A stretch of DNA of 35,702 nucleotides from NCBI GenBank assembly GCA_040754495.1, contig JBFMCO010000009.1, positions 1 through 35,702 on the forward strand. Direction: 5' to 3'. The position numbers and the translations under genes were made by a program. Under the pieces are notes generated by a model. The model worked only from the letters and a program-made list of their open reading frames with translations. It did no database searches and was not told where the DNA came from. Shown here in pieces: positions 420-21,892 of the stretch (its first letter is position 1; every line of letters starts with the position of its first letter). Source of the stretch: Candidatus Micrarchaeota archaeon (GTDB lineage Archaea; Micrarchaeota; Micrarchaeia; Anstonellales; Bilamarchaeaceae).

Positions 420-2873
420 GTGAAGAAACAGAGCGGCTGGACGCACCAGCGCATAATGACCATCGCAGCGCTCCTGCTGGCCGTGGGCTACGTCCTCTAC
501 GAATACTGGCCGGTCCTTGCGCCCCTCGGCGATGGCAGGCTCGTGTTCAACTACGGGGATTTCAACACCAACATAGGCCCGGAGTCCGCGGACGCGCGCA
601 AGGAAGCGACCATGTACACGTTCTACTCGGGCGGACCCGGCTTCTTCAACAACAGGTTCCTCATGCTCGGCGGGCTGAGCATCCTGTCGGATTTCGCCCC
701 CTTTTCGGATGCGCAGTTCCACAGCGCGCTAATCCTCGTGTCGCTCCTGCTCGGGAGCTGGGGCATCTACAGGCTGGTGAGGATGTTCCACGGGCCCGGG
801 TTGCAGGCTGCGCTCCTCATGCTCGCCGTCCTGCCCTTCTATTTCATGAACCTCTGGGCGGTCGAGCGCATTGTGCATACGTGGATATGGTTCACGTACG
901 CAATCCTGCCCCTTTTCCTTTCGCTCGGGCTTTCATACGCGAAGGAGAGGAAGGGAGAAACGCTCGTGGCGTATTCCCTCCTGCTCGGCTTCTACGGCAT
1001 CATCCCGCATTCGCTCTTTTACATGCTCCTTACGCACGCAGTGGCAGTAGCATTCCTCGCATTCACCGGCAGGAAGATTGGCCCCGTCGCCCTGTTCGCG
1101 CTCACCCCCATCGCGCTCTATGCAATCCTCAACGCGCCCATCCTCGCCCTCGGGGAATTCATGGACAACCCGTATCCGATAGCGGTGGACAGGGTGAGCC
1201 CGGAGCTGCTCTCGCGCTTCGGGGAGATGACGAACCTCCTTTCCTTCTCGAACAACTGGTGGCCCCAGTTCGCGGCGGAGAAGCTGTACGTGAATCCGGT
1301 TTTCAGGCTCTCCGGGCTCGCGTTCTTCATCATGGTTTTTTCCGTCTTCCCTCTTGCTTACGGGCGCCTGGAGCGGGAGCGGAAAGCGCTCGCGCTGCTC
1401 TGCCTCCTTGCCGTCCTCGGCGCGATGTTCCTCGCCCTCGGCACCAACAACACGATTGTCGCATGGGGCGTGGAAAAACTCTCGAAGGCCGGCTTCGGGA
1501 GCATCCTGGGAATCCTCAGGGAATGGGCGCGCATGAGCCTCATGATTCCGGTTTTCGCGTCAACGGCCCTTATCCTCGGCGCAGGCGGGCTGGATGGGAG
1601 GGCGCGGCTGATTTTCCCGGCCCTGCTGCTGGCTGTCGCCGCGCTCAACATCGCCCCCTCCCCGGCCCAGGAGTACCTGGAAGACAAGTACGCCGCTCAC
1701 CTGCTTCCGGACGCATACTACGCGCTCGCCGCGGAGGCCGAGGGCGGCGGCAAGGCGATGTTCATGAACACCGGCATCGAGGTCGTGAGGCACCAGGGGA
1801 TAGACAGGTACAGCACGCGCGACCGGGTGTTGATGGACATCTTCGCCTCAGGCTTCCTGCCAGAGCCCCTTCTCGACGCGCTCGATGCAAGGAATATAAT
1901 CCTGAGCAAAGCCAGCGGCTACGGCACGCTGCCCTGCGAGCGGTTCGCGGATTACACGCTCTGCCGGAACGAGGGGAGGGGCAGGTTCTTCGCGTACGCA
2001 GGGACGATAGCTGACCTCACTGAAGGCAGGAAGCTCGCTTCGGCCATGTTCCCTGCGCAGGATACGCTCGCGCTCGCCTCCGGCCCGGACCCGGCGGCAA
2101 GGCTCTTCCTTGCGGATGGTGAGAGCTTCAGGAACGGCACTGCGCAGGCAACCGGGACGCAGATGTACATACTCGAAGCTGAAACGGACTCCCGCACCAA
2201 CGGAAGCGCGAAGAAGCTTGGCGGCATTCCCGGCCAGAGCGGGGGAGGCATCATAGCGTTCACCGAAAACGGGACCGCGTCTTTCGCGCCGCGCATCGCA
2301 AGGGACGGGCAGTTCATGCTCGCGCTCAGAGGGAGCGGGGAACTGGAAGCGCATGCAGGCGGCAGGCCGGTGCAGCTCTCGGACGGGCCGTGGGGATTCC
2401 GCTACGGGGGGCCGTTCAATCTCAGCGGCGGGGAAAGGACGCTCGAAGTCAATGGCAGCGACGGGGCGGGCTTGGACGTGGTCTGGCTTTATGAGGGAAA
2501 TGAAAGCCCTGATGCGCTTTTTTCCGGGAACGCCCCTGCCCGCGTCCTTGACTATCGTAGCATAGACCCCACCAGATGGAGCGTTTCCGTGGAGGCGTCC
2601 GGCCCGTTCCTGCTCGCCTTCGCAGAAACCCACGCGCCCAGGTATGAGGCGAGGATATACAGGGACGGCAAGCGCATCGGGACCGCATACCCGGAGAAAA
2701 TCTTCGGCCTGATGAACGGCTACTGGATAAACGAGACCGGGAAGCTTGATATAGAAGTCGTTTACGCGCCGCAGGAAACCTACGAGGCCTGGCTTGCAGT
2801 GACTCAGGCTGTGCTCGCGCTCTGCGTGGCATACATAGCATTCTGCACGGCACGGAGATGGAAGCATGGATGA
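420..2873 (+). CDS. Polytopic membrane protein, GT-C-like (YfhO/AftD-like) with extracellular carbohydrate-binding-like domain
   Basis: About 11-13 hydrophobic segments in the N-terminal half. A beta-sandwich-like segment (YILEAE...SGG...LSGGERTLEV...LDVVWLY) resembles CBM6/35. The C-terminus is YfhO-like (SVSVEASGPFLLAFAET...GLMNGYWI...YAPQ plus a final TM). It has many N-x-S/T sequons. Confidence 0.65.
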   Translation: MKKQSGWTHQRIMTIAALLLAVGYVLYEYWPVLAPLGDGRLVFNYGDFNTNIGPESADARKEATMYTFYSGGPGFFNNRFLMLGGLSILSDFAPFSDAQFHSALILVSLLLGSWGIYRLVRMFHGPGLQAALLMLAVLPFYFMNLWAVERIVHTWIWFTYAILPLFLSLGLSYAKERKGETLVAYSLLLGFYGIIPHSLFYMLLTHAVAVAFLAFTGRKIGPVALFALTPIALYAILNAPILALGEFMDNPYPIAVDRVSPELLSRFGEMTNLLSFSNNWWPQFAAEKLYVNPVFRLSGLAFFIMVFSVFPLAYGRLERERKALALLCLLAVLGAMFLALGTNNTIVAWGVEKLSKAGFGSILGILREWARMSLMIPVFASTALILGAGGLDGRARLIFPALLLAVAALNIAPSPAQEYLEDKYAAHLLPDAYYALAAEAEGGGKAMFMNTGIEVVRHQGIDRYSTRDRVLMDIFASGFLPEPLLDALDARNIILSKASGYGTLPCERFADYTLCRNEGRGRFFAYAGTIADLTEGRKLASAMFPAQDTLALASGPDPAARLFLADGESFRNGTAQATGTQMYILEAETDSRTNGSAKKLGGIPGQSGGGIIAFTENGTASFAPRIARDGQFMLALRGSGELEAHAGGRPVQLSDGPWGFRYGGPFNLSGGERTLEVNGSDGAGLDVVWLYEGNESPDALFSGNAPARVLDYRSIDPTRWSVSVEASGPFLLAFAETHAPRYEARIYRDGKRIGTAYPEKIFGLMNGYWINETGKLDIEVVYAPQETYEAWLAVTQAVLALCVAYIAFCTARRWKHG

Positions 2874-3221: not shown

Positions 3222-4313
3222 TCATTTTTCGCGCAGGGCTTCTTCGAGGATGGACTCTGCCTCCTCAGCTGCATTCTCCCAGCTGAATCCGCCCGCGAAT
3301 GCGGCTGAAGACGCCGAGAGCCCCCTGAGCCGCCCCCTGTCATCGAGGAGGGCCACTGCCGCCTCCGCCATGCGCGCGTAATCGCCATCCGGGACAAGAG
3401 CGCCGTTGATTCCGTCCCGGATGCTGTCCCGCAGGCCGGGCACGTCGTATCCTATCACGGGAGTAGAGCAGGCGTTGCATTCAAGGACGACAAGGCCCCA
3501 CCCCTCGCGCACTGCCGGGAACAGCATCAGGTGCGCCTTCGACATGAGCTCTGCTTTCTTCTGCTGGCTTACCTTCCCGAAAAACTCGACCGAGCCTTCA
3601 AGCCCGTCTTCGCGCGCGGACTTCCTGAGCCTTTCCTCCTCAGGCCCGCTTCCTGCGACCCACAGCCGCGCACCCGGAACCCGCTCCCGAATGAGCCTGA
3701 GCGCTGAAAGCGCATGGTCGACCCGCTTGGAGCGCGTGAGCCTCCCTATATACAGGAGCGTCGGCGCCGTTTCCTTCGGCCCGGCCGCCGGCTCCACATC
3801 CGGCGCACCGTGCACCACGCGGACATCCCTGAACCCCAGCCGGAGCAGGTCGCTCCTGGTGGAAGGCGAGGGCGCAATCGCCGTGCGGCCGCGGTAGAGC
3901 CGCAGCATCGGGTCCTCGAGATGGTATCCTGCGAATGCCAGCGGAAGCGATATGCCGGAATACCAGTTCTCCCTCGTGAGCTGGTGGATGAGCGGGAATA
4001 CCGGCTCTTTGGCGAAAAGCGCGGTGAAGAACGGCGGGCCGTTGATGCTCTCGATGATTGCGTCGAACCTGCCCTGTACGTACTTCCTGTAGCACAGGAG
4101 CGCCTTCGGGTAGATGAGGAAGCGGCCGCCATACCTTACATGCCTGATGCCGTCTATGCTCTCCTGCGCCTTCGCCCCGGGGTAGGAGGACGTGAAAAGC
4201 GCGACTGAATGCCCGCGGGCGGCGAGGCGCTTCATGATCTGGTGCACGTAGACCTCGGCCCCGCCCGCGGCAGGGTTCCTTATGTCCCGCCAGTTGAAGA
4301 AAGCGATGCGCAT
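3222..4313 (-). CDS. Glycosyltransferase family 4 (GT-B)
   Basis: N-terminal NWRDIRNPAAGGAE, central YIGRL...KRVD, and the EGWGLVVLECNACSTPVI (Ex7E) motif. Confidence 0.93.
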   Translation of the reverse strand: MRIAFFNWRDIRNPAAGGAEVYVHQIMKRLAARGHSVALFTSSYPGAKAQESIDGIRHVRYGGRFLIYPKALLCYRKYVQGRFDAIIESINGPPFFTALFAKEPVFPLIHQLTRENWYSGISLPLAFAGYHLEDPMLRLYRGRTAIAPSPSTRSDLLRLGFRDVRVVHGAPDVEPAAGPKETAPTLLYIGRLTRSKRVDHALSALRLIRERVPGARLWVAGSGPEEERLRKSAREDGLEGSVEFFGKVSQQKKAELMSKAHLMLFPAVREGWGLVVLECNACSTPVIGYDVPGLRDSIRDGINGALVPDGDYARMAEAAVALLDDRGRLRGLSASSAAFAGGFSWENAAEEAESILEEALREK

Positions 4314-4481: not shown

Positions 4482-5957
4482 TTACCGGCTCCCTGCCATG
4501 CGCCTCAGCGCGGCCCTTGTAGAGGCACCGAGCAGTTTTTTTCCGGGGATGCGCCTGCCTGGCCAAATGGCCGTGCCGTCCATGTATCCGGGCACATCCG
4601 TTGAGAAGTAGGACAGGATTGTCGGCGCTACGTCCATCACCGAGCGCTCCTGGATTTCGCCCTGCGCCCTGAATCCGTCCCCCCATGCGATGAAAACGCC
4701 GCTCTTGCGGTGGGTGCCGTCCTTCTCCTTCCCGGGCTTGATGGGGCTGGAGATGCCGCTTGCGAGGGTGGTCGAGAGAAGGACGTCGTCCTCGGGTATC
4801 ACGAGCAGCGCCGGAGCCTTCCCGGTTTCAGGGCCGAAATAGATGTCCTCCCTCCGATAAACCTCCCTGACCATGGGCCTGCCTTCCCAGTCCTTCGCGC
4901 AAAGAATCGCCTGCCGGACTTCTTCCGCGCGGGCCGCGTCTTCGAGGGCAACCCCGCCGTCGTTGGAAAAAAGGAACGCGGCACTCCCCTTGAGGTCTAT
5001 GCGCTCGCAGACGTCAGCCCCGGGGAGAAGCATGATGCCGGCGTTGACCGCCTTCCCGACCTTTTTCAGGAGCGGCATGGCAGGGGCTAGCGGCGACAGG
5101 AGGGATGCGGCGCGCCTGCCAAGCAGGTGTGGCCGCTCCCTCAGGAGCCCGCGCCCGCGCAGCAGCGAATTCAGGTAAAGCTTGCGCCGCGCGGGAGCGA
5201 ATCCGTGGTCCGACACGACCATGACGTCGCAGCCCATGGCCAGCGCCTCCCCGAGGAAGCGGTCCGCGGCGGCGTACGCCTTGGCGATTTCAGTGCCTTC
5301 CTTCCGCGCCGCGGCCATGAACTCGTGCATGAAGAAATGCTGCAGCCAGTCGGTTGCCGAGAATACGACGACCGCAAGCTCCCAGTCCCTGCCCTTCATC
5401 AGGTGCAGGGCCGCCTTCGCCTTCATGTCCATGTTCCGGAGAAGCGCGGCCGAAAGCGCGGCGCGGTCTTTTATGTCCGCGCCCTTGAGCAGCTTCCCGA
5501 GCCCGGCCGGCCATGCCTCGAAATCCGGCACCGCCCTCCGGATATCCGCTTCGGCCCCGGCAGGGCTGCAGAAGCCTTTTCCGGGGGACGGGAAGCCGGA
5601 GACGACGACCGCGTTCGGGCATGGGCGCGGGGGATAGGAGCATGGGACGTTGAATGCGATTGCCTTATGGCTGCGGAGGAGCTCCCAGACGTATGGCATC
5701 CGGTTGCCCCCGCTAAGGGCAGTGCGGCCGCCCGAGTATTTCACGAAATCGAAAACGCCGTGCTTGCCCGGGTTCACGCCGGTGAACATGCTCGTCCAGG
5801 CCGGGGGCGTGAGCGCAGGCAGGGTGGAGCGCAGGGCCGCCACGGTCCCTGAGCCGCTGATGCGCCGGAAATTGGGAAGCGCCCCGGATTCGATGAGAGG
5901 GCGGAGGATGCTCCAGTCGGCGCCGTCGAGCCCGAGCACCACCAGTCTGGCTGCCAT
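4482..5957 (-). CDS. AlkP-superfamily protein (nucleotide pyrophosphatase/phosphodiesterase-like, COG3379 type), paralog 1
   Basis: VLGLDGADW, STLPALTPPAWTSMFTG (Thr nucleophile), TDWLQH, SDHG and THRKSG motifs. Start placed at ATG 5957, 24 nt from the TATA box. Confidence 0.88.
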   Translation of the reverse strand: MAARLVVLGLDGADWSILRPLIESGALPNFRRISGSGTVAALRSTLPALTPPAWTSMFTGVNPGKHGVFDFVKYSGGRTALSGGNRMPYVWELLRSHKAIAFNVPCSYPPRPCPNAVVVSGFPSPGKGFCSPAGAEADIRRAVPDFEAWPAGLGKLLKGADIKDRAALSAALLRNMDMKAKAALHLMKGRDWELAVVVFSATDWLQHFFMHEFMAAARKEGTEIAKAYAAADRFLGEALAMGCDVMVVSDHGFAPARRKLYLNSLLRGRGLLRERPHLLGRRAASLLSPLAPAMPLLKKVGKAVNAGIMLLPGADVCERIDLKGSAAFLFSNDGGVALEDAARAEEVRQAILCAKDWEGRPMVREVYRREDIYFGPETGKAPALLVIPEDDVLLSTTLASGISSPIKPGKEKDGTHRKSGVFIAWGDGFRAQGEIQERSVMDVAPTILSYFSTDVPGYMDGTAIWPGRRIPGKKLLGASTRAALRRMAGSR

Positions 5958-5980
5958 AGGCCTGTTCCATCCAAGAAACA

Positions 5981-5987
5981 TTTTAAA
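5981..5987. promoter_or_regulatory. Near-palindromic TATA box shared by divergent genes
   Basis: TTTTAAA lies 24 nt from ATG 5957 (-) and 23 nt from ATG 6010 (+). Confidence 0.6.
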
Positions 5988-8498: not shown

Positions 8499-8517
8499 GA
8501 ATTGATTTCGATGCATG

Positions 8518-9876: not shown

Positions 9877-10578
9877 ATGGCGGAAGGAAAAGTGTCCGTG
9901 ATTCTCCCGGTGCACAACGAGGGCAGGACCCTCGAGGGCAACGTGAAGCGGCTGATAGGCACGCTGGACGGATGCCTCGGCGACTACGAGATACTCATCA
10001 GCGAGGACGGCAGCACGGACGGGAGCACCGGGGTCGCGAAATCGCTCCGCTCGGCGCGCGTGAGGACGTTCCACAACGACAATCGGGTGGGCAAGGGCGC
10101 CGCGATAAAGAGCGCCGCAGCCCGCGCGCGCGGCAACATCATAATTTTCATGGACGCTGACCTCGCCTCGGAGCCGGCCCACGTGAAGGAGCTTGTCGGC
10201 TTCATACGCGACGGCGCGGCAATCGTCATAGGCTCGCGCTACCTGCCCGGAGCGAAGGCGAGCAGGAGCATGGTGCGGTATGTCGCGAGCAGGGCTTTCA
10301 ACATGCTTGTCAGCCTTCTTCTGGGCTCAAGGCTCAGCGACCACCAGTGCGGGTTCAAGGCTTTCAGGAAGGACCTCGTGCTCCCGGTCGTGAACGAGGT
10401 CGAGGACGAATGGTGGTTCTGGGACACCGAGCTTCTCGTGCGCGCCCAGCGCAGGGGCCTGCGCATAAGCGAAATCCCGATTCATTGGAAAGAGGTCTCA
10501 GGCTCCAGGTTCAGGCTCTTCCATGACAGCCTCAAGATGGCGTCCTGCCTCCTGAAGTTCAAGCTGAGGCACGGCTAG
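9877..10578 (+). CDS. Dolichyl/polyprenyl-phosphate glycosyltransferase (DPM1/ALG5-like GT2)
   Basis: VILPVHNE, EDGSTDGS, GKGAAI, FMDAD, SDHQCGFKAF and WFWDTELL motifs. Confidence 0.9.
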   Translation: MAEGKVSVILPVHNEGRTLEGNVKRLIGTLDGCLGDYEILISEDGSTDGSTGVAKSLRSARVRTFHNDNRVGKGAAIKSAAARARGNIIIFMDADLASEPAHVKELVGFIRDGAAIVIGSRYLPGAKASRSMVRYVASRAFNMLVSLLLGSRLSDHQCGFKAFRKDLVLPVVNEVEDEWWFWDTELLVRAQRRGLRISEIPIHWKEVSGSRFRLFHDSLKMASCLLKFKLRHG

Positions 10579-12215
10579 CGGCTTTCACGGCCGACGCCGT
10601 ACGATGCCATCCTGCAGAGGGCCTCCGCGGCAGGATTGGGGACGCGGGCCTTCTTCAGCACTTTCGCGAGCATGGCGACATCCTCGCGCCCGATGCATTT
10701 GAGGAGCAGGCAGAAGCAGGCGAAAAACGCGATTGCGGCTGCGCTCATGAGGCCGATGAAAGCGGCATAGAGGATTTTCGGCACGTAGAAGGGCGCGTCC
10801 GGTCCGGCTGCGCCCTGGATGCCTGCCGAGAGCGAGCTGATGATGGGGCCTGATAAGAACATTATGGCGAGCGTCGCCAGGCCGGCAAGCGCCAGCTTGA
10901 AGACTTCCGCCGGAAGGCGGTATCCGAAATGCTTCCTGGCGTAGTATGCGAGAAGCGTTGCGTTGGCCGCGAATCCCATGAGCGAGGAGATTGCCGAGCC
11001 CGCGATGCCGAGCACCGGGATGAGGAGGATATTCAGCACGATGTTGAGCAGGCCCGCGGCGACCGTGATTTCTATCTGGAGCCGGACGAGGCGCATGGCC
11101 GAGAGCGTGAGCGACAGGACGTATGAGACCGCCTTGAGCAGGATGCCGAGCGCGAGAATCGACATGACGATGCCGCCCGCCCGGTACTGCTCGCCATAAA
11201 GCGCGGCGAGTATGTCGCCCGAAAAGGCCATCATGACAAGGCCGAATGGCACGGTCATGAGGAGGGACCAGCGCTGTGCGGTCTCGGTCGCCGCGCCTAT
11301 CTGCAGCGTGTCGTTCTTCCCGTAAAGCCGGGATATCATCGGCAGGAATATGCCCCCTATGGAGTTCGGAATCGTCAGCAGGACGCCTGCCAATGACGCA
11401 GCGACCGCATAGACCGCGACGGCTTCGGTCGCCTCTGATGGGTCGAGGAGGAAGCCGAGCAGCACCCTGCTTGTCGAGAAGAAAAGCGCGCCGAGCGACG
11501 AGAGGAAGCCGAACATGAGGCCGAACGGGATGATTTCCCCGGTCAGCTGGGCCGCGCTTATGCCGCTGCCCGCAGGGAGCCCTTCCGCTCTTTTCCGCAC
11601 GAATACGAGCGAGAGCAGGATGGCCGGGACGAAGGAGAGCAGGAGGGCCGCGCCGACCGCGTTCGCGGATGGGCCGAACGTCATTATGAGCAGGGGGGCA
11701 AGGACGAGCTTCAGGAGGTTCTGGAGGTTCTGCGAAAGCTGCATGGAGCGTATGTCGGCCCTGGCCCGTATGAACGAAGTCGTAACGGCGAATATGTTCG
11801 TGAGCAGGAGGGAGAGGGACAGCATGCGGACCATGTCCGGAAGGCGCGGGTTCTGGTAGAGCGCCCCGATATTGTCCGCCTGCCACCAGAGAAGCAGGAC
11901 GAGCACCGCGGCGGAGGCGATTGTAAGGATGACGCTTACCCGCAGGAGCTCGCGGATTTTCCCTTTTTCGTTGCGGCCCTCGAAGAACGGGACGTAGCGC
12001 ACGAGCGCGCTCGCCATGCCGAGGTTGTCTATGACGGAGGGGAGCGAGACGATGCCCATCGCGAGGAAGAAAAGGCCGAGCTCGTCCTGCGGGACAAGGC
12101 GCGCGACGATGATGGTGTAGAAGAACGAGAACGAGTAGAAGAACGCGCTGCCGAGGAGGCCCCACATGCTCCCTTTCGCGACCTCCTTGGAGGATTCAGC
12201 TGGCTCGTCCTGCAT
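10575..12215 (-). CDS. Oligosaccharide/polysaccharide flippase (Wzx/MOP family)
   Basis: About 14 TM. Motifs include ELGLFFLA, NLGMASALVRYV, VAVYAVA, IFLPMISRLY and LNILLIPVLGIAGSAIS. SD GGTGA lies 4 nt before the ATG. Confidence 0.92.
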   Translation of the reverse strand: MQDEPAESSKEVAKGSMWGLLGSAFFYSFSFFYTIIVARLVPQDELGLFFLAMGIVSLPSVIDNLGMASALVRYVPFFEGRNEKGKIRELLRVSVILTIASAAVLVLLLWWQADNIGALYQNPRLPDMVRMLSLSLLLTNIFAVTTSFIRARADIRSMQLSQNLQNLLKLVLAPLLIMTFGPSANAVGAALLLSFVPAILLSLVFVRKRAEGLPAGSGISAAQLTGEIIPFGLMFGFLSSLGALFFSTSRVLLGFLLDPSEATEAVAVYAVAASLAGVLLTIPNSIGGIFLPMISRLYGKNDTLQIGAATETAQRWSLLMTVPFGLVMMAFSGDILAALYGEQYRAGGIVMSILALGILLKAVSYVLSLTLSAMRLVRLQIEITVAAGLLNIVLNILLIPVLGIAGSAISSLMGFAANATLLAYYARKHFGYRLPAEVFKLALAGLATLAIMFLSGPIISSLSAGIQGAAGPDAPFYVPKILYAAFIGLMSAAAIAFFACFCLLLKCIGREDVAMLAKVLKKARVPNPAAEALCRMASYGVGRESR

Positions 12216-12219
12216 CCCC

Positions 12220-13737
12220 TCACCTGCCCTTGCGCGCGAGGCGCCCGATGGAGAGCAGCGTCCTGTATCTCAGGTCCGAGCCTTTTGCGGATTTGCCTGA
12301 AATGACAGGAACTGGCTTGCCGTCCAGCGCCTCGGGGACAGCATAGCCGAAATAGGAGAGCACTGTCGGAGCGATATCAAGGAGGTGGAGGGTGTCGAGC
12401 CTGCCCAGCGCCCTGAGGTTCGGGCCGCACGAGACGAAGACGCCAAGCTCCCTGTGCGCCCCGTTCATCTCCCTTGCAGAGTCCACTTTCTTGCCGAGCG
12501 TCCTTGCGCCCGAGCAGCTGAAATGCACGTCATGCTCGGGAACTGCAGTGAGGGGCGGCGCTTTCTCCACGTGCGGGCCGGAATACAGCGACTCGCGCGC
12601 ATAAACGTCCCGCACGACTGCCGAGCCTTCCTCGTCCGAAGCGGCCTTGACAAGCTGCGCGACATGCTTCCGGTCATGGCCCGCAGGCACCATTATGCCG
12701 CCGTTGCGAGAGCTCAGGAACACCGAGCCCGGGTAATCTATGGCTCCGCCGCCGACGACGTCGCTCGGGAACACGGAGCGCCCGAGATTCGCAAGCAGCC
12801 TCGAGCGGCGGATGAAATCGTACAGCTGGAGCGGGATGAACGAGAGGACGCGCTCGCGCGTGAGGCCGGCCGCGTGCATCGCGCCCCTGCGCGTGGCCTT
12901 TTTCAGCTTCAGCACGCCGTTTTTCACGAAATAGGTGTTCATGAAGAATATGCGCCGGATTTCCCGGAACCCGTGGTCGGACGCTATGAGCACGTCGCAG
13001 CCGGAATCGAGCAGCTCGCCGAGAAGCGGGTCCAGCATTTTGTAGATTTCAGCGATTTCCGTGCCGGACTTTTTGTCCGCATTCAGGAACTCGCTCATGA
13101 AATAGTGCTGCACCCAGTCCGTCTCGGAGAAGACCATGAAGGCCGCGTCCCATTCCTTGCTTTTCAAAAGATGCCTCGCGACCTTCATGCGGGAATCCAG
13201 GCCTTTCTTGAGCGTGCGCACGATGCCTGACTTGTCGGCGGAGGCGCCCATCTTGACGAGCTGGCCCTCGGGCCCCATGTCGAAATCGTAATCCGGGACG
13301 ATGCCGAGGATTTCCGTCCGGAGCCCTGCCGGCGCTGTGAATGCGCTGTCCCGGTCCGGAGTCCCGAAGCCCGTGATGAGCATCGCGTTCGCGCTCGTTC
13401 TTGGCGGGAATGACATCGGTATGTTGAACGCGAGCACCTTCTCCCTGTGCATCAGCTCCCAGAAATACGGCGCCTGCCTGTCCGCGCCCGAGGTGTATCT
13501 CGGCTTCCCGTTGACGACCGTCCCGAAATCGAATATGCCGTGCTTCCCGGGATTAACGCCGGTGAATATGCTCGTCCAGGCCGGGGCTGTGAGAGGCGGG
13601 ATTGTGGAGCGCAGGTGCGCCCGCGTGCCCTTATCCATTGCCCGCTTGAAATTCGGCAGGCAGCCTTCCTTGATTAGGGGGTCGAGGACCTCCCAGTCGG
13701 CGCCGTCTACGCCGAACAGGACTAGTTTCCGGCTCAT
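12220..13737 (-). CDS. AlkP-superfamily protein (COG3379 type), paralog 2
   Basis: LFGVDGADW, STIPPLTAPAWTSIFTG, TDWVQH, SDHG and AHRELG motifs. Confidence 0.88.
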   Translation of the reverse strand: MSRKLVLFGVDGADWEVLDPLIKEGCLPNFKRAMDKGTRAHLRSTIPPLTAPAWTSIFTGVNPGKHGIFDFGTVVNGKPRYTSGADRQAPYFWELMHREKVLAFNIPMSFPPRTSANAMLITGFGTPDRDSAFTAPAGLRTEILGIVPDYDFDMGPEGQLVKMGASADKSGIVRTLKKGLDSRMKVARHLLKSKEWDAAFMVFSETDWVQHYFMSEFLNADKKSGTEIAEIYKMLDPLLGELLDSGCDVLIASDHGFREIRRIFFMNTYFVKNGVLKLKKATRRGAMHAAGLTRERVLSFIPLQLYDFIRRSRLLANLGRSVFPSDVVGGGAIDYPGSVFLSSRNGGIMVPAGHDRKHVAQLVKAASDEEGSAVVRDVYARESLYSGPHVEKAPPLTAVPEHDVHFSCSGARTLGKKVDSAREMNGAHRELGVFVSCGPNLRALGRLDTLHLLDIAPTVLSYFGYAVPEALDGKPVPVISGKSAKGSDLRYRTLLSIGRLARKGR

Positions 13738-13763
13738 ATCGGCAACAAATGGGGTTCATTCTA

Positions 13764-13770
13764 TTTTTAA
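13764..13770. promoter_or_regulatory. TATA-like box between divergent AlkP paralog 2 and cysD
   Basis: TTTTTAA is the main AT tract in the 66-nt divergent spacer. Confidence 0.45.
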
Positions 13771-13803
13771 GTGTATCCGGGGTAAATCCTTCCAGGTGGT
13801 TGA

Positions 13804-14592
13804 TTGGCGGAGCTTCAGGACCTTGACAGGCTCGAGGAGGGCAGCGTGTTCATACTGCGCGAGGCCAAGGCCAAATTCAGGAGGCTTGCCGCGCTCTGGA
13901 GCATGGGCAAGGACTCGACGGCCATGCTCGCCCTTGCCCGCAAGGCGTTCTTCGGCAGGGTGCCCTTCCCTGTCATACACATAGACAACGGCATTGATTT
14001 CCAGGAGACATACGAGTTCAGGAAAAGGCTGGCCGACGAATGGGGGCTGGAGCTGATTGTAGCGAAAAGCGAAATCAAGGACGACATCTCCGGCATCCGC
14101 TGCTGTGGCGCGAACAAGACCGACGCGCTCAAGAAGGTCCTGGACGAGAGGGGGTTCGACGGCCTCATCGTTTCCATCCGCAGGGACGAGCACGGCATCC
14201 GCGCGAAGGAGCGGCACTTTTCCCCGCGCGACAGGGAGTTCAGGTGGAACTACAAGGACCAGCCGCCCGAGGTCTGGGGATATACCAGCAGATTCGAGGG
14301 CAGCTCGCACGTCCGCATCCACCCGCTCCTGCAGTGGAACGAGGTGGACATCTGGAGGTACGTGAAAAGGGAGAGCGTCCCGGTCAATCCGCTCTATTTC
14401 TCGAAAGCAGGGAAGAGATACCGGAGCCTCGGCTGCACGCAGTGCACCGTGGCAATAGAGTCAGGGGCATCTTCCGTGGACGACATCATCGCGGAACTCG
14501 GGAAGACGTCCATCGCCGAGCGCTCAGGGAGGATGCAGGACAAGGAGCAGGAAAACGTGATGCAGAGGCTGCGCGCTCTTGGCTACATGTGA
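13804..14592 (+). CDS. cysD: Sulfate adenylyltransferase subunit 2
   Basis: PP-loop WSMGKDS, FPVIHID, RRDE..RAKERHFSPR, RIHPLLQWNE, YRSLGC and RSGRMQD motifs. TTG start with SD GGTGG at 4-nt spacing. Confidence 0.93.
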   Translation: MAELQDLDRLEEGSVFILREAKAKFRRLAALWSMGKDSTAMLALARKAFFGRVPFPVIHIDNGIDFQETYEFRKRLADEWGLELIVAKSEIKDDISGIRCCGANKTDALKKVLDERGFDGLIVSIRRDEHGIRAKERHFSPRDREFRWNYKDQPPEVWGYTSRFEGSSHVRIHPLLQWNEVDIWRYVKRESVPVNPLYFSKAGKRYRSLGCTQCTVAIESGASSVDDIIAELGKTSIAERSGRMQDKEQENVMQRLRALGYM

Positions 14593-14596
14593 ATCT

Positions 14597-15841
14597 ATGG
14601 CAAAGGAAATCCGCATCTCGCTTCTTGGCCACAAGGACCATGGGAAATCCACCCTTGTCGGCAGGCTCCTCCACGACACGGGCTCCATGACCAAGGACCG
14701 AATAGAGGAGGCCAAAGCCATCTGCGCGGCTTCGGGGAAGGAGTTCGAGCTGGCATTCCTGCTGGACAGCTTCGTGGAGGAGAGGGAAGGCGGCTTCACG
14801 CTCGACACGACGACCGCGCAGGCCCGCCACCGTGATGTGATATATAACCTGATTGACGTGCCCGGCCATCGGGAACTTGTCAAGAACATGCTGAGCGGGG
14901 CCTCGCAGGCCGATGCCGCCATACTGATTGTCTCGGCAAAGGAGGACGAGGGGCTTCAGGACGAGACGAGGCTCCACCTTTACATGGCCTCCATGCTCGG
15001 CATACGAAGGCTTGTCGTCGCTGTGAACAAGATGGACGCCGTGGGGTATGGGCGTGAGAGATTCGAGTCGCTGAAAAGCAGCGTTTCCGCTGTGCTGTCC
15101 TCTTTCGGCTTCGGGGATTTCTCATTCGTGCCGGTTTCAGCGAGGAACGGGGACAATGTCATGGAGCGCTCAGGCTCCATGGAATGGTATGACGGCAGGC
15201 CGCTGATTTCGCTCATGGAGGAGTTCGCCGACGGCCATGAGGAGACGCGTCTCCGTTCCCTTGCTCCGCGGCTCTTCGTGCAGGACGCTTACGACGTGGA
15301 CGGCGGGAAGATGCTCGTCGGGAGGCTGGAAACCGGGATGCTGGGGACCGGCCAGGTGGTTGCCATCGAGCCTCTCGGCCTCAGGACCACGATAAAAGCC
15401 ATCCACTCCCCGGGCGGGGCTGAGAGGAAGGAAGCCGAAGCCGGGCAGAACATCGGCCTCAGGCTTGCTTATTCCGGCGATATCGGGAGGGGATGCGTCA
15501 TAGCCGGGGAGGAAAGCGCGCCCCGGGCCGGCAGGGAATTCGAGGCGCTCATATTCTGCTTCCCGGAGTGCTCGCTCGAGCCTGGCGAGGAGCTTACTGT
15601 GACGTGCTCCTCGCAGGAGGCTTCGGCAATGATAAAGAGGGTGAGGAGCAGGATGAACCCTATAAAAGACCTCCATCCGCACCCTGCCCAGCTCGGCGGC
15701 GTCGGTTCCTGCGAGGCTGCTGAAGTGTCGCTCGAGACCGGCTCGCCGCTCGTGTTCGAAAGGTTCTCTGAGATGCCGCCAACCGGAAGGTTCATAATCT
15801 CTAAAGCCGGGAAAATCGCCGGCGTGGGCGTGATACTCTGA
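14597..15841 (+). CDS. cysN: Sulfate adenylyltransferase subunit 1 (GTPase), no fused APS kinase
   Basis: GHKDHGKSTL, EERE.GFTLD, DVPGH, NKMD and VSARNGDN motifs. Lies directly downstream of cysD. Confidence 0.85.
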   Translation: MAKEIRISLLGHKDHGKSTLVGRLLHDTGSMTKDRIEEAKAICAASGKEFELAFLLDSFVEEREGGFTLDTTTAQARHRDVIYNLIDVPGHRELVKNMLSGASQADAAILIVSAKEDEGLQDETRLHLYMASMLGIRRLVVAVNKMDAVGYGRERFESLKSSVSAVLSSFGFGDFSFVPVSARNGDNVMERSGSMEWYDGRPLISLMEEFADGHEETRLRSLAPRLFVQDAYDVDGGKMLVGRLETGMLGTGQVVAIEPLGLRTTIKAIHSPGGAERKEAEAGQNIGLRLAYSGDIGRGCVIAGEESAPRAGREFEALIFCFPECSLEPGEELTVTCSSQEASAMIKRVRSRMNPIKDLHPHPAQLGGVGSCEAAEVSLETGSPLVFERFSEMPPTGRFIISKAGKIAGVGVIL

Positions 15842-16602
15842 TAGTCATAGGGCTGGACGGGGCGACGTGGAGGGTGATAAAGCCCAACCTGGAGCGCCTG
15901 CCCTCCTTCAAAACGCTTCTTGGGAAGCACTTGCACTCCACGCTCGTCTGCGACGTGCGGCCCGTGCATTCCGCCCCTTCATGGACTACGATTTTCAGCG
16001 GCCTCATGCCTTCCGAGCATGGAATCATGCATTTCGTGATGGATGGAAAGGCAAGGGAGGAGCTTCTTGCCAGGAAGATATTCGTCTGGGACAGGGTGAA
16101 GCGCGCCATAGTGATGGGCGTGCCTGTTGCCCTGCCCCCGCTCAACAGGAATTACCAGCTCCGCGACTGGGAGAAGCACGTGCTTTCCGTGAAAGGCGAG
16201 GAGATGCTCGAGAGCACGCGCAAGCTCTGCTCGGATGTGGCCGGGGCGATAGAGTTCGGCGAGGCGGACCTCGTGGCCGCGGTCTTCTCAGAGCCGGACC
16301 GGGCCCAGCACATGTTCTGGAACGAGCCCGAGACCGTGCTCAGGCACTACAAAAGCGTTGATGACGCGCTCGCGAGGCTGCTCCCGCTACTTGAAGGCAG
16401 GGATTTCCTGATTCTCAGCGACCACGGCTTCACCGATGCCGCTGAGACGAAGAGAAACAACTGGGACACAGTGCGCGACAACCAGAGCGGCGGACACCAC
16501 CCCGAGGGCATCGCCATTTCTAACCTCGAGCCTCCGGCGAAGGTGAGCCAGGTCTGCTCCTTCATAGAGGCTTCCCTTTCGCGCCGCGGCCTGCTTCTTT
16601 AA
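15838..16602 (+). CDS. Short AlkP-superfamily protein, paralog 3 (probable CTG start)
   Basis: The conserved IVIGLDGATW lies in frame upstream of the first GTG (15874). Other motifs: HSAPSWTTIFSG, PDRAQH, SDHG and HHPEG. CTG at 15838 overlaps the cysN stop. Confidence 0.8.
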   Translation: MIVIGLDGATWRVIKPNLERLPSFKTLLGKHLHSTLVCDVRPVHSAPSWTTIFSGLMPSEHGIMHFVMDGKAREELLARKIFVWDRVKRAIVMGVPVALPPLNRNYQLRDWEKHVLSVKGEEMLESTRKLCSDVAGAIEFGEADLVAAVFSEPDRAQHMFWNEPETVLRHYKSVDDALARLLPLLEGRDFLILSDHGFTDAAETKRNNWDTVRDNQSGGHHPEGIAISNLEPPAKVSQVCSFIEASLSRRGLLL

Positions 16603-16627: not shown

Positions 16628-17812
16628 ATGACCAAGCCGTCGTTCCTGATTACGCATTCGTGGAGCCACAACATGGGCGACACGGCGATTCTTCTCGCGA
16701 CCGTTGACATGCTCCATTCCATCGCTCCGGGGTGCAGCGTCAGCGCCCTGGCGTCGCATCCTTCATTTACGAAAGAGAGATGCCCCCGCTTCAGGGGGCA
16801 TATAGACGCCTGGCCCTGGCCGGTTCCAGCCGGCAGGCCGGGCTTGCTCGACCTTGCGTATTACCCTGTGCTATTCATGGGCAATCTGCTCTCCGCTGCC
16901 GCCTACAGGCTTTTTGGGGCCAGGCTGTTCGTGCTCAATGGGGGGTTCTCCGGCCCGCTGACGAGGTTCTTCGAGAGCGACGTGGTGATAAGCCCGGGCG
17001 GGGACTTCATCGGCCCGCATTACTTCTTCATGACCGCCTTCGGCGAGATGCTGATGGCCAAAATCCTCGGCAAGCGCCTTGTCGTTTGCGCCCAGACCAT
17101 AGGCCCGTTCCGGGGCCTCCTGCACAGGAGGCTCGCATCTGCCGTGCTTGGCATGGCAGACCTGATTATCGTGAGGGAGGAGCGCACCGCGCAAAGGCTC
17201 AGGGAGGCAGGCCTGAAGGACGTTCACGTTACATCGGACATCGCCTTCACGTTCCCCCAGCCGAAAAAAAGGCAGCGGAAGGCCGGGCGGGTGATACTCT
17301 GCCCTAAGAAGCTCCGGGAGGGCAGGGAGGATTATGCGCAGGCGATGGTGGCTTTAGGCCGGAAAATCGCCGCTGAAGGCTGCGAGGTTGTGCTCGTAGC
17401 GAGCGACGCGTACGATGCAGGGCTTCACGCAGAAATCGCCCGCGGGATAGGGCCGCAGGCGAAGCTGGTTGGCGCCATCCACCCACCGGACAGGCTGGCC
17501 GGATACATCGCAGGCTCGGACTTCATAGTTTCCAGCAGGATGCACGCAATAATCCTCGGCTCGCTTTCGCACACGCCCTTCTTCGCCATCGGCGACAGCC
17601 ACAAGTTCCAGGACGTCCTCGGGGACTTGTGCCAGGGGTGCTCCATGGATGCCGGGGAGCTTGACGAGAAGGGGATTGAACGGGTGCTTGATTCCTTTGG
17701 GAGAAGGGAGGAGCTGAGGGCTTCAATCTCCGAATCCTTCCCTTCAGTAAAGGAGAAGGCGTCGCGGAGCGGGCTCATACTCAGGGAAAAGCTTACGGAG
17801 TGGGGATTATGA
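16628..17812 (+). CDS. Polysaccharide pyruvyl transferase family (WcaK/CsaB-like)
   Basis: N-terminal NMGDTAIL, SPGGDFIG, AQTIGPF, VREE and SRMHAIILG motifs. Confidence 0.88.
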   Translation: MTKPSFLITHSWSHNMGDTAILLATVDMLHSIAPGCSVSALASHPSFTKERCPRFRGHIDAWPWPVPAGRPGLLDLAYYPVLFMGNLLSAAAYRLFGARLFVLNGGFSGPLTRFFESDVVISPGGDFIGPHYFFMTAFGEMLMAKILGKRLVVCAQTIGPFRGLLHRRLASAVLGMADLIIVREERTAQRLREAGLKDVHVTSDIAFTFPQPKKRQRKAGRVILCPKKLREGREDYAQAMVALGRKIAAEGCEVVLVASDAYDAGLHAEIARGIGPQAKLVGAIHPPDRLAGYIAGSDFIVSSRMHAIILGSLSHTPFFAIGDSHKFQDVLGDLCQGCSMDAGELDEKGIERVLDSFGRREELRASISESFPSVKEKASRSGLILREKLTEWGL

Positions 17813-18003
17813 ACGTGGATATTCCGGCAGGATTGTACAAGAAACTAGAGGAGAGGATAAAGGGCAGCGAGTTTTCCAGTGTCTCGGACTACGTTGCATT
17901 CGTGCTCACCGAGCTGCTTGCGGCCGAGGAGGCTTCAGGCGGGAGTTCCGAGGACGAGGGCAAGGTCAAGGAAAGGCTCAGGTCTTTGGGCTACCTCGAC
18001 TGA
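17809..18003 (+). CDS. Small ribbon-helix-helix (CopG-like) protein with C-terminal ERLRSLGYLD tail
   Basis: ATGA overlap with the upstream stop. VDIPAGLYKKLEERI...FSSVSDYVAFVL fits an RHH pattern. Confidence 0.8.
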   Translation: MNVDIPAGLYKKLEERIKGSEFSSVSDYVAFVLTELLAAEEASGGSSEDEGKVKERLRSLGYLD

Positions 18004-19253
18004 AGGTCGATTGAGGGCTTCAGGGAGGAGACTACGGATTGCAGCTTGCCGCTCCTGCCCCTCGGAATTGATTCGACCAGCTCCACCTTGATGTCCAGTT
18101 TTTCCGGGAAGAAGGCGTTCAGGTCGTCGGAGAGCTTCTTGCGGTCCTTTCCGTCTATTTTCCCGTCCTCGGTGACTATGAGGATTTTCAGCTCGCCCTC
18201 GTTGTCCTGCCTCGCCTGGAAGAGCACGGCGCCCGGGATGTCGCGGATGAAGACACCCACGAACCGCCCGGAGATGGGCCTTCCGCTCGGAAGCACGATG
18301 AAATCGTCGTCTCTTCCCTCTATGGGCTTGAGCGTCTGCAGGCCTCTTTTGCACGCGCACTTTTCACCTATTGCCGTGCGGTCGCCGAGCGAGTAGCGGA
18401 GCAGCGGCATCGCCCTCTGCCAGAGCGGGGTTACGACAATGTTGCCGTATTCGCCGTCTTTCACGGGCCTGCCCTGCTCATCCACGATTTCCGCAATCAC
18501 ATGGTCCGAATGCAGGTGCATCGAGCCTTTTTCGCACTGCCACGCGAGCCAGGACGTCTCCATCGAGCCGTACATGTCATAGACCTTCGCCCCGAACGAC
18601 GCTTCGAGGAACGCCCTTGCCTTCGGCGTGAGAAGCTCCGCATACGAGAAGAGCTTTTCTATCTTCAATGCGCCGTCCCCCTGGTTCGCGTGCGCCATCG
18701 GGAGCGCGTACGAGGGATGGCAGATGAGCGCCTTCGGCTTCATCTCCTTCAGCTTCTTGAGGTTGGCTTTTTCATCGTCATGCATGGAAAGGTAATGCCT
18801 CCTGAAGATACCGAGGTTTTGCAGGAGGCGCGGCTTTCCGTTATGGTAGATGATGTGCACTACCTTGTCGAAAGGCCCGATGCCCGCTTCCGTGAGCTGG
18901 CGCATCTCGAATGCCGGGCCGTAGGCCGATTCCCCTGCGCTGTGATAGATGTCGAGCGGAGTGCCTGTGGAGCCGGATGTGGACATCTTCTTGAGCGAGC
19001 TTTCCCTGTATGCGCTGCTGATGAGGGAAAGGGTGTTCGAGCGGATGTCCTGCTTGCGGAGGATTGGTAGAGCAGGGAGGTCGTCGAGGGAACGGACCGT
19101 TCTCCCCTCGAATTTCTTCCTGTAATACGGGACCTTGTTTTTCGCGTACTCGAAAAGCTCCCTGAGCTTCTTTTCCTGGGTTGCCCTCAGCTCTTCCGGG
19201 CTTTTCCACTGGTCGGAGCGCATCTGCGCGAGCAAAGAGGCTATGTGCATCAT
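17991..19253 (-). CDS. CapK/PaaK-like adenylate-forming ligase, paralog 2
   Basis: STSGSTGTP, MYGSMET, PLLRYSLGD, GRDDD and KLQSVVS motifs. The start at 19253 forms an ATGA overlap with the upstream stop. Confidence 0.88.
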   Translation of the reverse strand: MMHIASLLAQMRSDQWKSPEELRATQEKKLRELFEYAKNKVPYYRKKFEGRTVRSLDDLPALPILRKQDIRSNTLSLISSAYRESSLKKMSTSGSTGTPLDIYHSAGESAYGPAFEMRQLTEAGIGPFDKVVHIIYHNGKPRLLQNLGIFRRHYLSMHDDEKANLKKLKEMKPKALICHPSYALPMAHANQGDGALKIEKLFSYAELLTPKARAFLEASFGAKVYDMYGSMETSWLAWQCEKGSMHLHSDHVIAEIVDEQGRPVKDGEYGNIVVTPLWQRAMPLLRYSLGDRTAIGEKCACKRGLQTLKPIEGRDDDFIVLPSGRPISGRFVGVFIRDIPGAVLFQARQDNEGELKILIVTEDGKIDGKDRKKLSDDLNAFFPEKLDIKVELVESIPRGRSGKLQSVVSSLKPSIDLQSR

Positions 19254-20500
19254 TTTCGCACCTTCGAGACGACCGTGCTGATTTTTCCGGTCCTTCCCTT
19301 TTCTATGGAATTTGCCTCCTCGAACTCCACCGTAATTCTCTCCCCGAGGCAGCCCCTTTTGATTCTTTTTGCGATTTCCTTCCTGGCTTTTTCGTCGAAG
19401 CCCTTTGCAGGCACGTACCTGAACACGAAAATGCCTTCCTTTTCCTGCACAATCTGGTAGCTTTTTACCTCCCGGATGTCGTCCAGAAGGTTGATGGAGC
19501 GCGCGGAGCGCTTTTTCCCGCTCGGCAATGTGATTAGGTCGTCCTCCCTGCCTTCCAGCCTGCCCAGGACGGGCAATCCCCGGCCGCAGCCGCATTTTCC
19601 CCATTCCGCCAGGTCGCCGACGGCATAGCGCAGGAGCGGCATCGCCGAATTGAACAGGCCGGTGATTACCAGGCGGCCGAGGCCATTTGTCGGCCTGCCC
19701 TGGCTATCCACGATTTCGGCAAGGCAGTTCGGGTGGACGTGCAAGGAGTGGTTTTTGCATTCGAACGCAATCGTGCCGAATTCAACAGAGCCGTACTGGT
19801 TGAAGACCGGGCAATCGAATGATTCGCCAATGAGCCTGCGCCTTTCCTTTGTAAGCATCTCGGCCCCGCAGAAGACGGATTTCAGATTTACAGGGTTTCC
19901 GGCCTCTTCGTTCAGCCTTGCCATCATGCCGACGATTGAGGGGTACCAGCCGAGGATGTCCGGCTTCGCCTTTTGGAGGAGCGCGAAGTTCTTTTCCTCG
20001 TCCTCGAAAACAGAGAGGTGCATTTTTCGGAAGATGCCAAGCGAGGCAAGATGGGGCAGTGAGCTGTATTCAGCGTCGGATATTTCAGCAAACAAGTCGA
20101 AGGGCGAGCGGCCGAACTCCGTCTGCGCGAAGGCCAGGCCCGCGGCCCTAGCGGAGAGCGCGTTTTTGTCGAAATAGACGTCGATTGGCACCCCGGAGGA
20201 GCCGGACGTGCTGGCCTTGTGGAGAGAGGCGGTTTTCGTGAGAAAATCCTGGGGAGCGGAGCGGATGTCGTCCTTGGTAGTTATGGGTATTTCGGAGAGG
20301 ATTGGGGAGGGGGATGATATGGAATGGGGTTTTGAGGTCGCAAGGGTTATGCGTTTTGAGTAGAATTTAGTTTTCTTCGCGGCCTCGATGATTCTGGCCA
20401 GCTTTTTCCCCTGAAGCTCCTGGAGCCCCGCAGGGCTCAGCCACTGCTCCCTCCTGAAAGTGAGGACGTCGCTGAGCATCTTCAGGAAAGAGGGACGCAT
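19250..20500 (-). CDS. CapK/PaaK-like adenylate-forming ligase, paralog 3
   Basis: STSGSSGVP, QYGSVEFG, PLLRYAVGD, GREDD and KISTVVS motifs. TATA-like TTAAAAAA lies about 22 nt upstream of ATG 20500. Confidence 0.88.
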   Translation of the reverse strand: MRPSFLKMLSDVLTFRREQWLSPAGLQELQGKKLARIIEAAKKTKFYSKRITLATSKPHSISSPSPILSEIPITTKDDIRSAPQDFLTKTASLHKASTSGSSGVPIDVYFDKNALSARAAGLAFAQTEFGRSPFDLFAEISDAEYSSLPHLASLGIFRKMHLSVFEDEEKNFALLQKAKPDILGWYPSIVGMMARLNEEAGNPVNLKSVFCGAEMLTKERRRLIGESFDCPVFNQYGSVEFGTIAFECKNHSLHVHPNCLAEIVDSQGRPTNGLGRLVITGLFNSAMPLLRYAVGDLAEWGKCGCGRGLPVLGRLEGREDDLITLPSGKKRSARSINLLDDIREVKSYQIVQEKEGIFVFRYVPAKGFDEKARKEIAKRIKRGCLGERITVEFEEANSIEKGRTGKISTVVSKVRK

Positions 20501-21848: not shown

Positions 21849-21892
21849 GAAGCGGGTTAGGGCGGGCAATGTTTATAATCCGGGCCGCTCCT

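Follow-up and report, generated by a model that had tools for sequence, protein, structure and literature searches.

Contig JBFMCO010000009.1 of a Candidatus Micrarchaeota archaeon, studied here over its whole length of 35.7 kb (hereafter the window), comes from an archaeal metagenome-assembled genome of 1.63 Mb in 72 contigs that is 80% complete. It carries a cysD-cysN pair for sulfate activation and three genes for proteins of the alkaline phosphatase (AlkP) superfamily, all of Pfam family PF01663. As a preliminary description had it, the pair is directly followed by one AlkP gene, is divergent from a second, and has a third at position 4482; Pfam and NCBIfam confirm that all five genes are real. 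Based on profile searches, predicted structures and genome comparisons, we put at roughly 55% the probability that the three PF01663 proteins are the glycan sulfotransferases of the island in which they lie, built on the fold of the nucleotide pyrophosphatases/phosphodiesterases (NPP) and dependent on adenosine 5'-phosphosulfate (APS).

The sulfate-activation genes and their AlkP neighbours

The first gene of the pair, cysD (13804..14592, + strand), encodes the catalytic subunit of ATP sulfurylase in a short form of 262 aa. It passes the NCBIfam subfamily model NF003587 with 300.7 bits against a cut-off of 195, is homologous to chain A of 1ZUN (E 2e-55), relative to which it has one internal deletion of about 33 residues, and is 80-88% identical to orthologues from other lineages. 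Directly after it lies the gene for a CysN-like GTPase of 420 aa (14579..15841, + strand, with a likely ATG start at 14597), a three-domain protein of the EF-Tu/EF-1alpha type that carries no APS-kinase domain. This protein matches chain B of 1ZUN (E 3e-52) and scores 248.7 bits with TIGR02034, not reaching the cut-off of 336.1; it is slightly closer to archaeal EF-1alpha, both by profile (305 bits with NF008969 vs 249 for CysN) and against PDB (243 vs 181). As it stays under the cut-off for both CysN and EF-1alpha, it appears to belong to a distinct clade of CysD partners.

Three PF01663 genes accompany this pair. AlkP1 (12220..13737, - strand, 505 aa, PF01663 E 2e-34) is a long NPP-type protein encoded divergently from cysD and is our candidate APS-dependent glycan sulfotransferase; AlkP3 (4482..5981, - strand, 499 aa, PF01663 E 5e-29) is a second long form and likewise a candidate sulfotransferase; and AlkP2 (15838..16602, + strand, 254 aa) is a short form, a minimal NPP core. 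The 66 bp between AlkP1 and cysD (13738..13803) contain an A+T-rich, TATA-like box, TATTTTTAAG, read from the sequence at about 13761-13770, and this spacer is probably a bidirectional archaeal promoter. The window proteins score 119.9, 102.5 and 85.3 bits with PF01663 (cut-off 23), and the short AlkP2, read from 15838, scores 99.8 bits. Identity to AlkP1 is 42% for AlkP3 and 33% for AlkP2, and the insert domains differ among these paralogues of the island (33-42% identity). The family to which they belong is large: at E<=1e-30 it counts 2,801 cluster representatives.

In an alignment of 70 homologues, the metal ligands D11, D207, D254, H255 and H428 are invariant, and H211 and the nucleophile T50 are each conserved in at least 90%. 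The catalytic and metal residues are all retained in AlkP1, AlkP2 and AlkP3, the nucleophile being Ser in AlkP2 and its 7 orthologues; the short form also lacks both insert domains of the long forms. Furthermore, T50 aligns with the catalytic residue of the phosphonoacetate hydrolase PhnA (Thr in 3SZY, Ala in the variant 3T02), as do the D..H and DH motifs with those of PhnA. By alignment, then, the AlkP proteins carry the full two-metal site and nucleophile of the NPP/PhnA branch. Predicted structures point the same way: the AlkP1 model (predicted local distance difference test, pLDDT, 92.9) is nearest in fold to PhnA (1EI6, 3SZY), ENPP6 and Xac NPP, at 12-16% identity, and the AlkP2 model (pLDDT 90.4) is nearest to Xac NPP 2GSN. 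The top PDB fold matches of the two models (1EI6, 3SZY, 5EGH, 7MW8 and 2GSN) each have a probability of 1.00, no sulfatase stands in the top 50 ranks listed, and the sulfatase domain PF00884 has no Pfam match in the window AlkP proteins. Transmembrane (TM) prediction found neither a signal peptide nor a TM segment in any of the three, and on this prediction they are cytoplasmic.

The start of AlkP2 deserves comment. Its true beginning is at 15838 and not at 15874, since the metal-binding GLDG motif sits upstream of the first canonical start, the in-frame GTG at 15874, from which a translated product would lose this motif. In 8 of 8 orthologues the gene begins with an ATG or GTG that overlaps the cysN stop codon (ATGA or GTGA), and these orthologues are, judging from the overlap, translationally coupled to cysN. 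The window (15835-15876) reads CTGA at this place, so that the start codon of AlkP2 is non-canonical or lost here, and the window copy may be poorly translated; its frame of 254 codons is otherwise intact. We also considered that AlkP2 could be a truncated remnant, which is ruled out by an orthologue of about 250 aa after cysN in 8 further loci and by a fold with a complete core. Because these orthologues recur and the model folds confidently as a complete minimal core, we regard AlkP2 as a conserved gene type.

Association with sulfate activation in other genomes

The preliminary description had reported a window without cysC, cysH, sulfite reductase or a classical sulfotransferase. None was found among the large window open reading frames (ORFs) scanned against Pfam, and the absences extend to the whole genome (1.63 Mb, 80% complete), where we found no APS kinase (PF01583), no second true PF01507 (PAPS_reduct) match besides CysD that would be an APS/PAPS reductase (PAPS, 3'-phosphoadenosine 5'-phosphosulfate), no sulfite reductase (PF01077), none of the classical sulfotransferases PF00685 (Sulfotransfer_1) and PF13469 (Sulfotransfer_3), and no sulfatase (PF00884). 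For PF03567 (Sulfotransfer_2) the genome gave no match and neither did any control genome, which makes this search uninformative. Two genus-mates with the same cassette were also found to have neither an assimilatory nor a classical sulfotransferase pathway. The genome has only three PF01663 genes, and each lies within 10 kb of cysDN, which in 1.63 Mb is far above chance.

To see how far this arrangement extends, we annotated, with our own profile and by clustering, 67 species-level loci that encode close relatives of the short CysD. An AlkP-superfamily gene lies within 10 kb in 39 of these 67 archaeal and bacterial loci, mostly directly after cysN. In 22 loci no more than 300 bp separate a PF01663-type gene from the cysDN block, and 9 more have such a gene at a distance of up to 10 kb; the 22 adjacent cases comprise 14 from Micrarchaeota and 8 of the 9 bacterial loci, which come from five phyla and include Phycisphaerae, Omnitrophota, Armatimonadota and Nitrospirae. 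A Mancarchaeum metagenome-assembled genome also carries cysDN (L045). In 8 further loci, including all 3 from Thermoplasmata, the gene directly after cysN is an AlkP gene of the sulfatase type (PF00884), and 5 loci have a flank too short to judge the presence of an AlkP gene. Throughout the 67 loci, bar one split gene, cysN encodes about 390-445 aa, so that none has a fused APS kinase. The close AlkP1 homologues P0012 and P0024 lie in the same cassette as in the window: flippase, long AlkP, divergent cysD-cysN and short AlkP. As an observation in its own right, 46 of the 67 loci (for example L064:9681-9980) have, immediately before cysD, a conserved ORF for a soluble, basic protein of about 100 aa without a Pfam match. 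In the small-genome Micrarchaeota families no other gene accompanies cysDN as constantly; the window does not have this ORF.

The association is not limited to adjacency. P0056 is a 758-aa fusion of the AlkP type of the window with a CysD-type domain, and this domain aligns end to end with the window CysD, including the C-terminal ...LGYM. A protein Atlas listing gives, as a lead, a 61-member Chloroflexota cluster of 881-aa proteins that would combine a PF01747 ATP-sulfurylase domain with PUA_2 and PF01663. Two other Micrarchaeota have a PF01663 gene adjoining both an ATP sulfurylase of the Sat type and an APS kinase: in G224 it stands in the middle of the order Sat-AlkP-APS kinase, and in G211 the cluster holds genes for an AglB-like protein, TauE, AlkP, APS kinase, Sat, GT2 and a sulfatase-like protein. 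As Sat and CysDN are unrelated and make the same product, their common PF01663 partner points to APS or to sulfate itself. The co-occurrence of the AlkP family with cysDN or sat, proposed earlier as a check, is strong: fused genes are part of it, and so is Sat, which is not homologous to CysDN. Cross-phylum adjacency, fusions and displacement by Sat are independent lines of evidence, and on these genomic grounds the link between AlkP and sulfate activation is more than neighbourhood.

Other fusions of the family were also met. Longer AlkP proteins were mainly AlkP-TPR proteins, two of which also carry Sulfotransfer_3: P0260 and P0274, bacterial three-domain proteins of the form AlkP(PF01663)-TPR-Sulfotransfer_3. 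No sulfur domain was found in the long matches of the representative search, which instead gave tandem AlkP proteins (P0280, P0282) and one DUF2304-AlkP fusion.

A short C-terminal peptide recurs in these proteins. Nearly every CysD of the short subfamily ends in [KR]LRxLGYM, the window CysD in ...RLRALGYM (14550-14589). Among the more distant PF01663 homologues (P0033-P0120), 66 of 88 end in an acidic stretch followed by ...LGY and a hydrophobic residue, mostly as RL[RK]xLGY, and three sulfatase-type neighbours of cysDN (L059:14300-15676, L063:14635-16059, L073:17215-19212) have the tail L[KR][ST]LGY[LI]Q. The long AlkPs of the window have a basic amphipathic tail in place of the LGY peptide. 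A peptide common to non-homologous partners may be a docking signal, for example on the EF-1alpha-like CysN.

The distribution of these genes was followed in a sample of 251 genomes of the Micrarchaeota phylum, in which kinship inflates all counts; two unpublished genomes, G029 and G198, are counted in, but no conclusion depends on them, and without them each family count changes by one. CysD is present in 53/64 and 44/47 genomes of two families with genomes of 0.6-1.3 Mb (97/111 together), and in 3/46 genomes of the window's own family. PF01663 follows a parallel pattern (60/64 and 46/47 in the two cysDN-rich families, 11/46 in the window's family), and in the window's genus the genomes with CysD and those with strong PF01663 matches are the same three (G000, G244, G247). 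Their identical gene order suggests a single acquisition, and in the window's family cysDN looks to have been acquired along with the island. A true APS kinase, defined as a full-length match with E<1e-20, was found in 7 of the 251 genomes and in 0 of the 111 of the two cysDN-rich families, in which Sulfotransfer_1 and _3 were also found in none. Genus-mate G045, without the cassette, has an APS kinase adjoining classical sulfotransferases, which makes the classical and the AlkP-linked systems look like alternatives.

In most genomes of the two cysDN-rich families the only PAPS_reduct match is CysD itself. A strict lack of any APS consumer in these families had to be rejected, as a true APS/PAPS reductase occurs in G125 and a divergent CysH-like gene in a few genomes. 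The latter lies beside a PF01663 gene, in glycan clusters, in G055, G076, G179 and G181; the G055 protein (L090:4495-5280) scores 116 bits, below the reductase cut-off of 154. These CysH-like/PF01663 pairs form a third kind of PAPS_reduct-AlkP association. Separately, a record labelled 'Patescibacteria group bacterium', the source of P0028 and P0157, has the same cassette as G247, which GTDB places in the window's archaeal genus, and this bacterial label is probably a misclassification.

The glycan-biosynthesis island

Pfam and NCBIfam profiles, together with TM prediction, identify the first 25 kb of the window as a glycan-biosynthesis island. A Wzx/MurJ-type flippase with 13 TM segments (10575..12215, - strand) follows AlkP1 in the same orientation after 4 nt, and this AlkP-flippase pair is kept in L087 and L089. 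At lower coordinates beside it is a GT2 glycosyltransferase (9877..10578, + strand; PF00535, E 8e-29), and a GT4 glycosyltransferase (3222..4313, - strand; PF00534, E 5e-37), next to AlkP3, has homologues in 20 related cysD loci. Following AlkP2, a polysaccharide pyruvyl transferase of the CsaB/WcaK-like type (16628..17812, + strand) is kept after the short AlkP in 7 loci, as found by clustering; its presence in the island suggests that the glycan product is acidic.

At 420..2873 (+ strand) the island encodes an 817-aa membrane protein with about 9-10 TM segments in its N-terminal part and a large soluble C-terminal part, which has no Pfam match. Clustering places homologues of this protein in 6 related cysD loci. 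It is possibly a so far unrecognised polymerase or oligosaccharyltransferase of the GT-C type serving the island; that it is an AglB homologue was rejected, as BLASTP against the AglB-like protein of L079 gave no similarity. Four diverged PaaK/CapK/F390-synthetase-like adenylating enzymes (7233-8516, 17991-19604, 20559-21869 and 23269-24492) and a TrpB-like enzyme dependent on pyridoxal phosphate (21893-23239), all on the - strand, could decorate the glycan with amino acids or organic acids. Beyond the island the contig is of a housekeeping nature, with genes for transcription factor B (TFB), a DEAD helicase, UvrC and UvrA. A haloarchaeal origin, suspected from the G+C content and the archaeal genes, was rejected: the best matches of the window proteins are labelled Micrarchaeota, and their composition is non-acidic, which indicates that the organism is no halophile.

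A candidate APS-dependent sulfation route and its alternatives

Why should these AlkP proteins be regarded as sulfotransferases? Sulfate activation is costly for a very small genome and needs a consumer of APS, and the AlkP-superfamily proteins are its only conserved partners. In addition, they are predicted to be cytoplasmic and catalytically intact, they form diverged paralogues, and their genes share operons with those of a flippase and glycosyltransferases; some are fused to the sulfurylase gene. As a nucleotide-phospho-sulfate anhydride, APS closely resembles the nucleotide pyrophosphates on which NPP enzymes act. Members of the AlkP superfamily are known to cross over between the transfer of phosphoryl and of sulfuryl groups.

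From this we infer sulfuryl transfer, APS as the donor, a covalent intermediate and the nature of the acceptor. The island would build an acidic surface glycan, for which CysD and the CysN-like GTPase would convert sulfate and ATP into APS. This APS would go directly, with no PAPS step, to the three cytoplasmic NPP-type proteins, which would use it on lipid-linked sugars, and sulfation would precede export by the neighbouring Wzx-type flippase. In the active site, the two-metal site would activate the Thr (Ser in AlkP2), whose alkoxide would attack the sulfur of APS with AMP as the leaving group, and the sulfo-enzyme would pass the sulfate to a sugar hydroxyl. The three diverged paralogues could serve different acceptor positions. 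The preliminary description had left the donor as APS or PAPS; as no APS kinase was found, APS is favoured for the window and PAPS is not.

That proteins of the AlkP superfamily can act as sulfotransferases, an idea that the preliminary description put forward for these genes, has published precedent. Agl30 (VNG1056C) and Agl31 (VNG1057C) of Halobacterium salinarum are N-glycan sulfotransferases with an AlkP-superfamily core; the genetic demonstration of this role rests on their deletion and on their expression in Haloferax (Zaretsky et al., 2025, mBio, PMC11980604). Their nearest structures are the sulfatases 5G2U and 6HHM, and the paper names neither donor nor mechanism and does not mention APS, PAPS, cysDN or ATP sulfurylase (PMC11980604). 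The window system resembles theirs in having AlkP-superfamily genes inside an archaeal glycosylation cluster (here with GT4, GT2, Wzx-type flippase and pyruvyl transferase) and in having several paralogues; those of H. salinarum serve different sugar positions, one is soluble and cytoplasmic, and they act instead of P-loop enzymes. Unlike Agl30 and Agl31, which by the paper's description are sulfatase-like, the window proteins are NPP/PhnA-like and have no PF00884. Without this sulfatase domain they are not members of the Agl30/Agl31 family, though they may work alike; the sulfatase-type genes found after cysN in 8 other loci may be the true relatives of Agl30/31. In Haloferax volcanii, Agl7 (HVO_2046) is required for sulfation of the low-salt N-glycan, at its hexose in the dolichol-phosphate-linked form (Kaminski et al., 2013, PMC3892788). 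Sulfation there takes place on the lipid-linked sugar before flipping, and was suggested to be possibly needed for translocation (PMC3892788). Agl7 resembles the window system in acting within an archaeal glycan cluster.

Other known systems share single features with the window. The NPP/PhnA branch (Xac NPP 2GSN, ENPP1-7, 1EI6/3SZY) has the same fold, two-metal ligand set and Thr nucleophile, and its known members are hydrolases, mostly secreted or ectoenzymes. The window proteins differ from it by their cytoplasmic location, family-specific inserts, a conserved NPGKHG motif and genetic linkage to ATP sulfurylase, and share 12-16% identity with it. EptA/MCR-1 and LtaS are group transferases that act on envelope glycoconjugates via a covalent Thr intermediate; they belong to a sulfatase-like Pfam family, are membrane-anchored with a periplasmic or extracellular catalytic domain, use lipid donors and transfer phospho-alcohols. 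The window proteins, in contrast, are in PF01663 and cytoplasmic. As with NodP/NodQ and NodH of Sinorhizobium, a dedicated CysDN copy lies inside a glycoconjugate locus, for sulfation rather than assimilation. The Nod system differs in that it makes PAPS, with a kinase carried by NodQ, and uses a classical sulfotransferase, neither of which was found in the window genome. Our literature search found no paper on PF01663 or COG3379 proteins as sulfotransferases, nor on cysDN in Micrarchaeota as a sulfation system.

Several points weigh against a sulfotransferase role. No protein of the PF01663 type is known to transfer sulfate, and the published precedent lies in the sulfatase-like branch. Of the 55 cysDN loci from Micrarchaeota, about 22 lack any AlkP gene up to 10 kb away. 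Glycan clusters also hold four distant members of the family (three of the four have the LGY tail), and up to 8 kb from these there is no gene for sulfate activation, so that the family need not be uniformly sulfate-specific. Two Micrarchaeota pair the AlkP gene with an APS kinase, and PAPS may thus be the donor in some lineages. The AlkP-TPR-Sulfotransfer_3 fusions could mean that the AlkP domain assists a classical sulfotransferase rather than replaces it. Finally, no TauE or SulP sulfate transporter was found in the genome, the window copy of AlkP2 is without a canonical start codon, and the absences are bounded by a genome that is only 80% complete. Taken together, the glycan sulfotransferases foreseen in the preliminary description are favoured by the absences and the co-occurrence; the different branch of the precedent and the distant members without sulfate genes hold the proposal short of confirmation.

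Four other explanations were weighed, which by decreasing weight are a phospho-group transferase, a helper hydrolase, a CysDN-like pair that activates something other than sulfate, and plain hydrolases. The first, which we consider improbable, is that the AlkPs, like LtaS, EptA and other transferases of the superfamily, add phosphoglycerol, phosphoethanolamine, phosphocholine or a similar phosphate-containing group to the glycan, with a nucleotide-diphospho-alcohol or a lipid as the donor, while CysDN serves another, unrecognised sulfotransferase and the two are close because they share a glycan island. The nearest folds, ENPP6, NPP and PhnA, are phosphodiesterases on phospho-alcohol esters and nucleotides; distant AlkP members lie in glycan clusters beside NTP_transferase genes and without sulfate genes; and the fusion locus L006 also has CDP-OH_P_transf and NTP_transf_3 genes. 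All this would suit such a transferase, to which the AlkP-TPR-Sulfotransfer_3 fusions also lend some support; it however leaves unexplained the AlkP-CysD fusions (and the AlkP-Sat fusions of the Atlas lead), the ATGA-coupled junction of cysN and AlkP, and the Sat-AlkP-APS kinase operon, and leaves APS without a consumer in 97 small genomes.

Slightly less probable again is a role of the AlkPs as helper hydrolases, which would remove pyrophosphate to pull ATP sulfurylase forward, or clear 3'-phosphoadenosine 5'-phosphate (PAP), AMP or excess APS, while something else would be the real sulfotransferase. NPP-type enzymes cleave the pyrophosphate bonds of nucleotides, some eukaryotes have an ATP sulfurylase with a fused pyrophosphatase, and the matched PDB entries are bound to AMP. 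The AlkP fusions with a classical sulfotransferase domain (P0260, P0274) would also fit, and distant AlkP members in glycan clusters without sulfate genes within 8 kb lend some support. However, CysN already provides a driving GTP hydrolysis, there is no PAP to clear without an APS kinase, and the consumer of APS would still be missing; three diverged paralogues (33-42% identity) with different inserts suit acceptor specificity rather than housekeeping.

We give markedly less credit to the idea that the CysD/CysN-like pair adenylates another anion or group (e.g. selenate or phosphonate), which the AlkPs would then transfer. This could account for a CysN-like protein that is under the CysN cut-off and matches EF-1alpha models slightly better, for a short CysD that is missing about 33 residues present in 1ZUN chain A, and for a genome in which no TauE/SulP sulfate transporter was found; yet CysD passes its NCBIfam cut-off (300.7 vs 195 bits), and in other Micrarchaeota this AlkP family is found together with Sat, APS kinase and TauE, which ties the partner to sulfate. 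Least probable of all are plain hydrolases that remove or trim groups (sulfatases, phosphodiesterases or scavengers of host nucleotides) and are unrelated to biosynthesis: the AlkP superfamily is mostly hydrolytic and the database names are those of phosphohydrolases, but these AlkPs are predicted to be cytoplasmic with no export signal, are operonic with the flippase, glycosyltransferases and cysDN, and as APS hydrolases beside an APS synthase would run a futile cycle.

Returning to APS-dependent sulfotransferases, a wider version of the proposal can be drawn, which we hold tentatively and at somewhat less than even odds. There would be a widespread PAPS-independent route in which ATP sulfurylase (CysDN or Sat, sometimes fused) hands APS directly to PF01663 sulfotransferases acting via sulfo-Thr; it would be near-core in two genome-reduced Micrarchaeota families and common in the glycan islands of many bacterial phyla, with the C-terminal ...RLRxLGY of CysD and many AlkPs as the docking signal of the complex. 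What is new here are the near-universal kinase-free cysDN in two Micrarchaeota families, the displacement by Sat, two kinds of fusion, a minimal AlkP of 250 aa and the common C-terminal peptide.

In textbook biological sulfation, PAPS is the donor and P-loop enzymes are the sulfotransferases. If our interpretation is true, there would be a second, mechanistically different route, in which sulfate is taken straight from APS on an NPP fold, which has so far been associated with hydrolysis and the transfer of phospho groups. It would give a function to a family of about 2,800 representatives named only 'AlkP superfamily phosphohydrolase', for which the three AlkPs of the window are direct candidates for enzyme assays, and it would account for orphan cysDN and sat genes that environmental genome surveys take as pieces of the sulfur cycle. 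It would also explain why ultra-small DPANN archaea with almost no biosynthesis retain a sulfate activation that costs ATP and GTP, presumably in order to have a sulfated cell surface, which could play a part in contact with the host.

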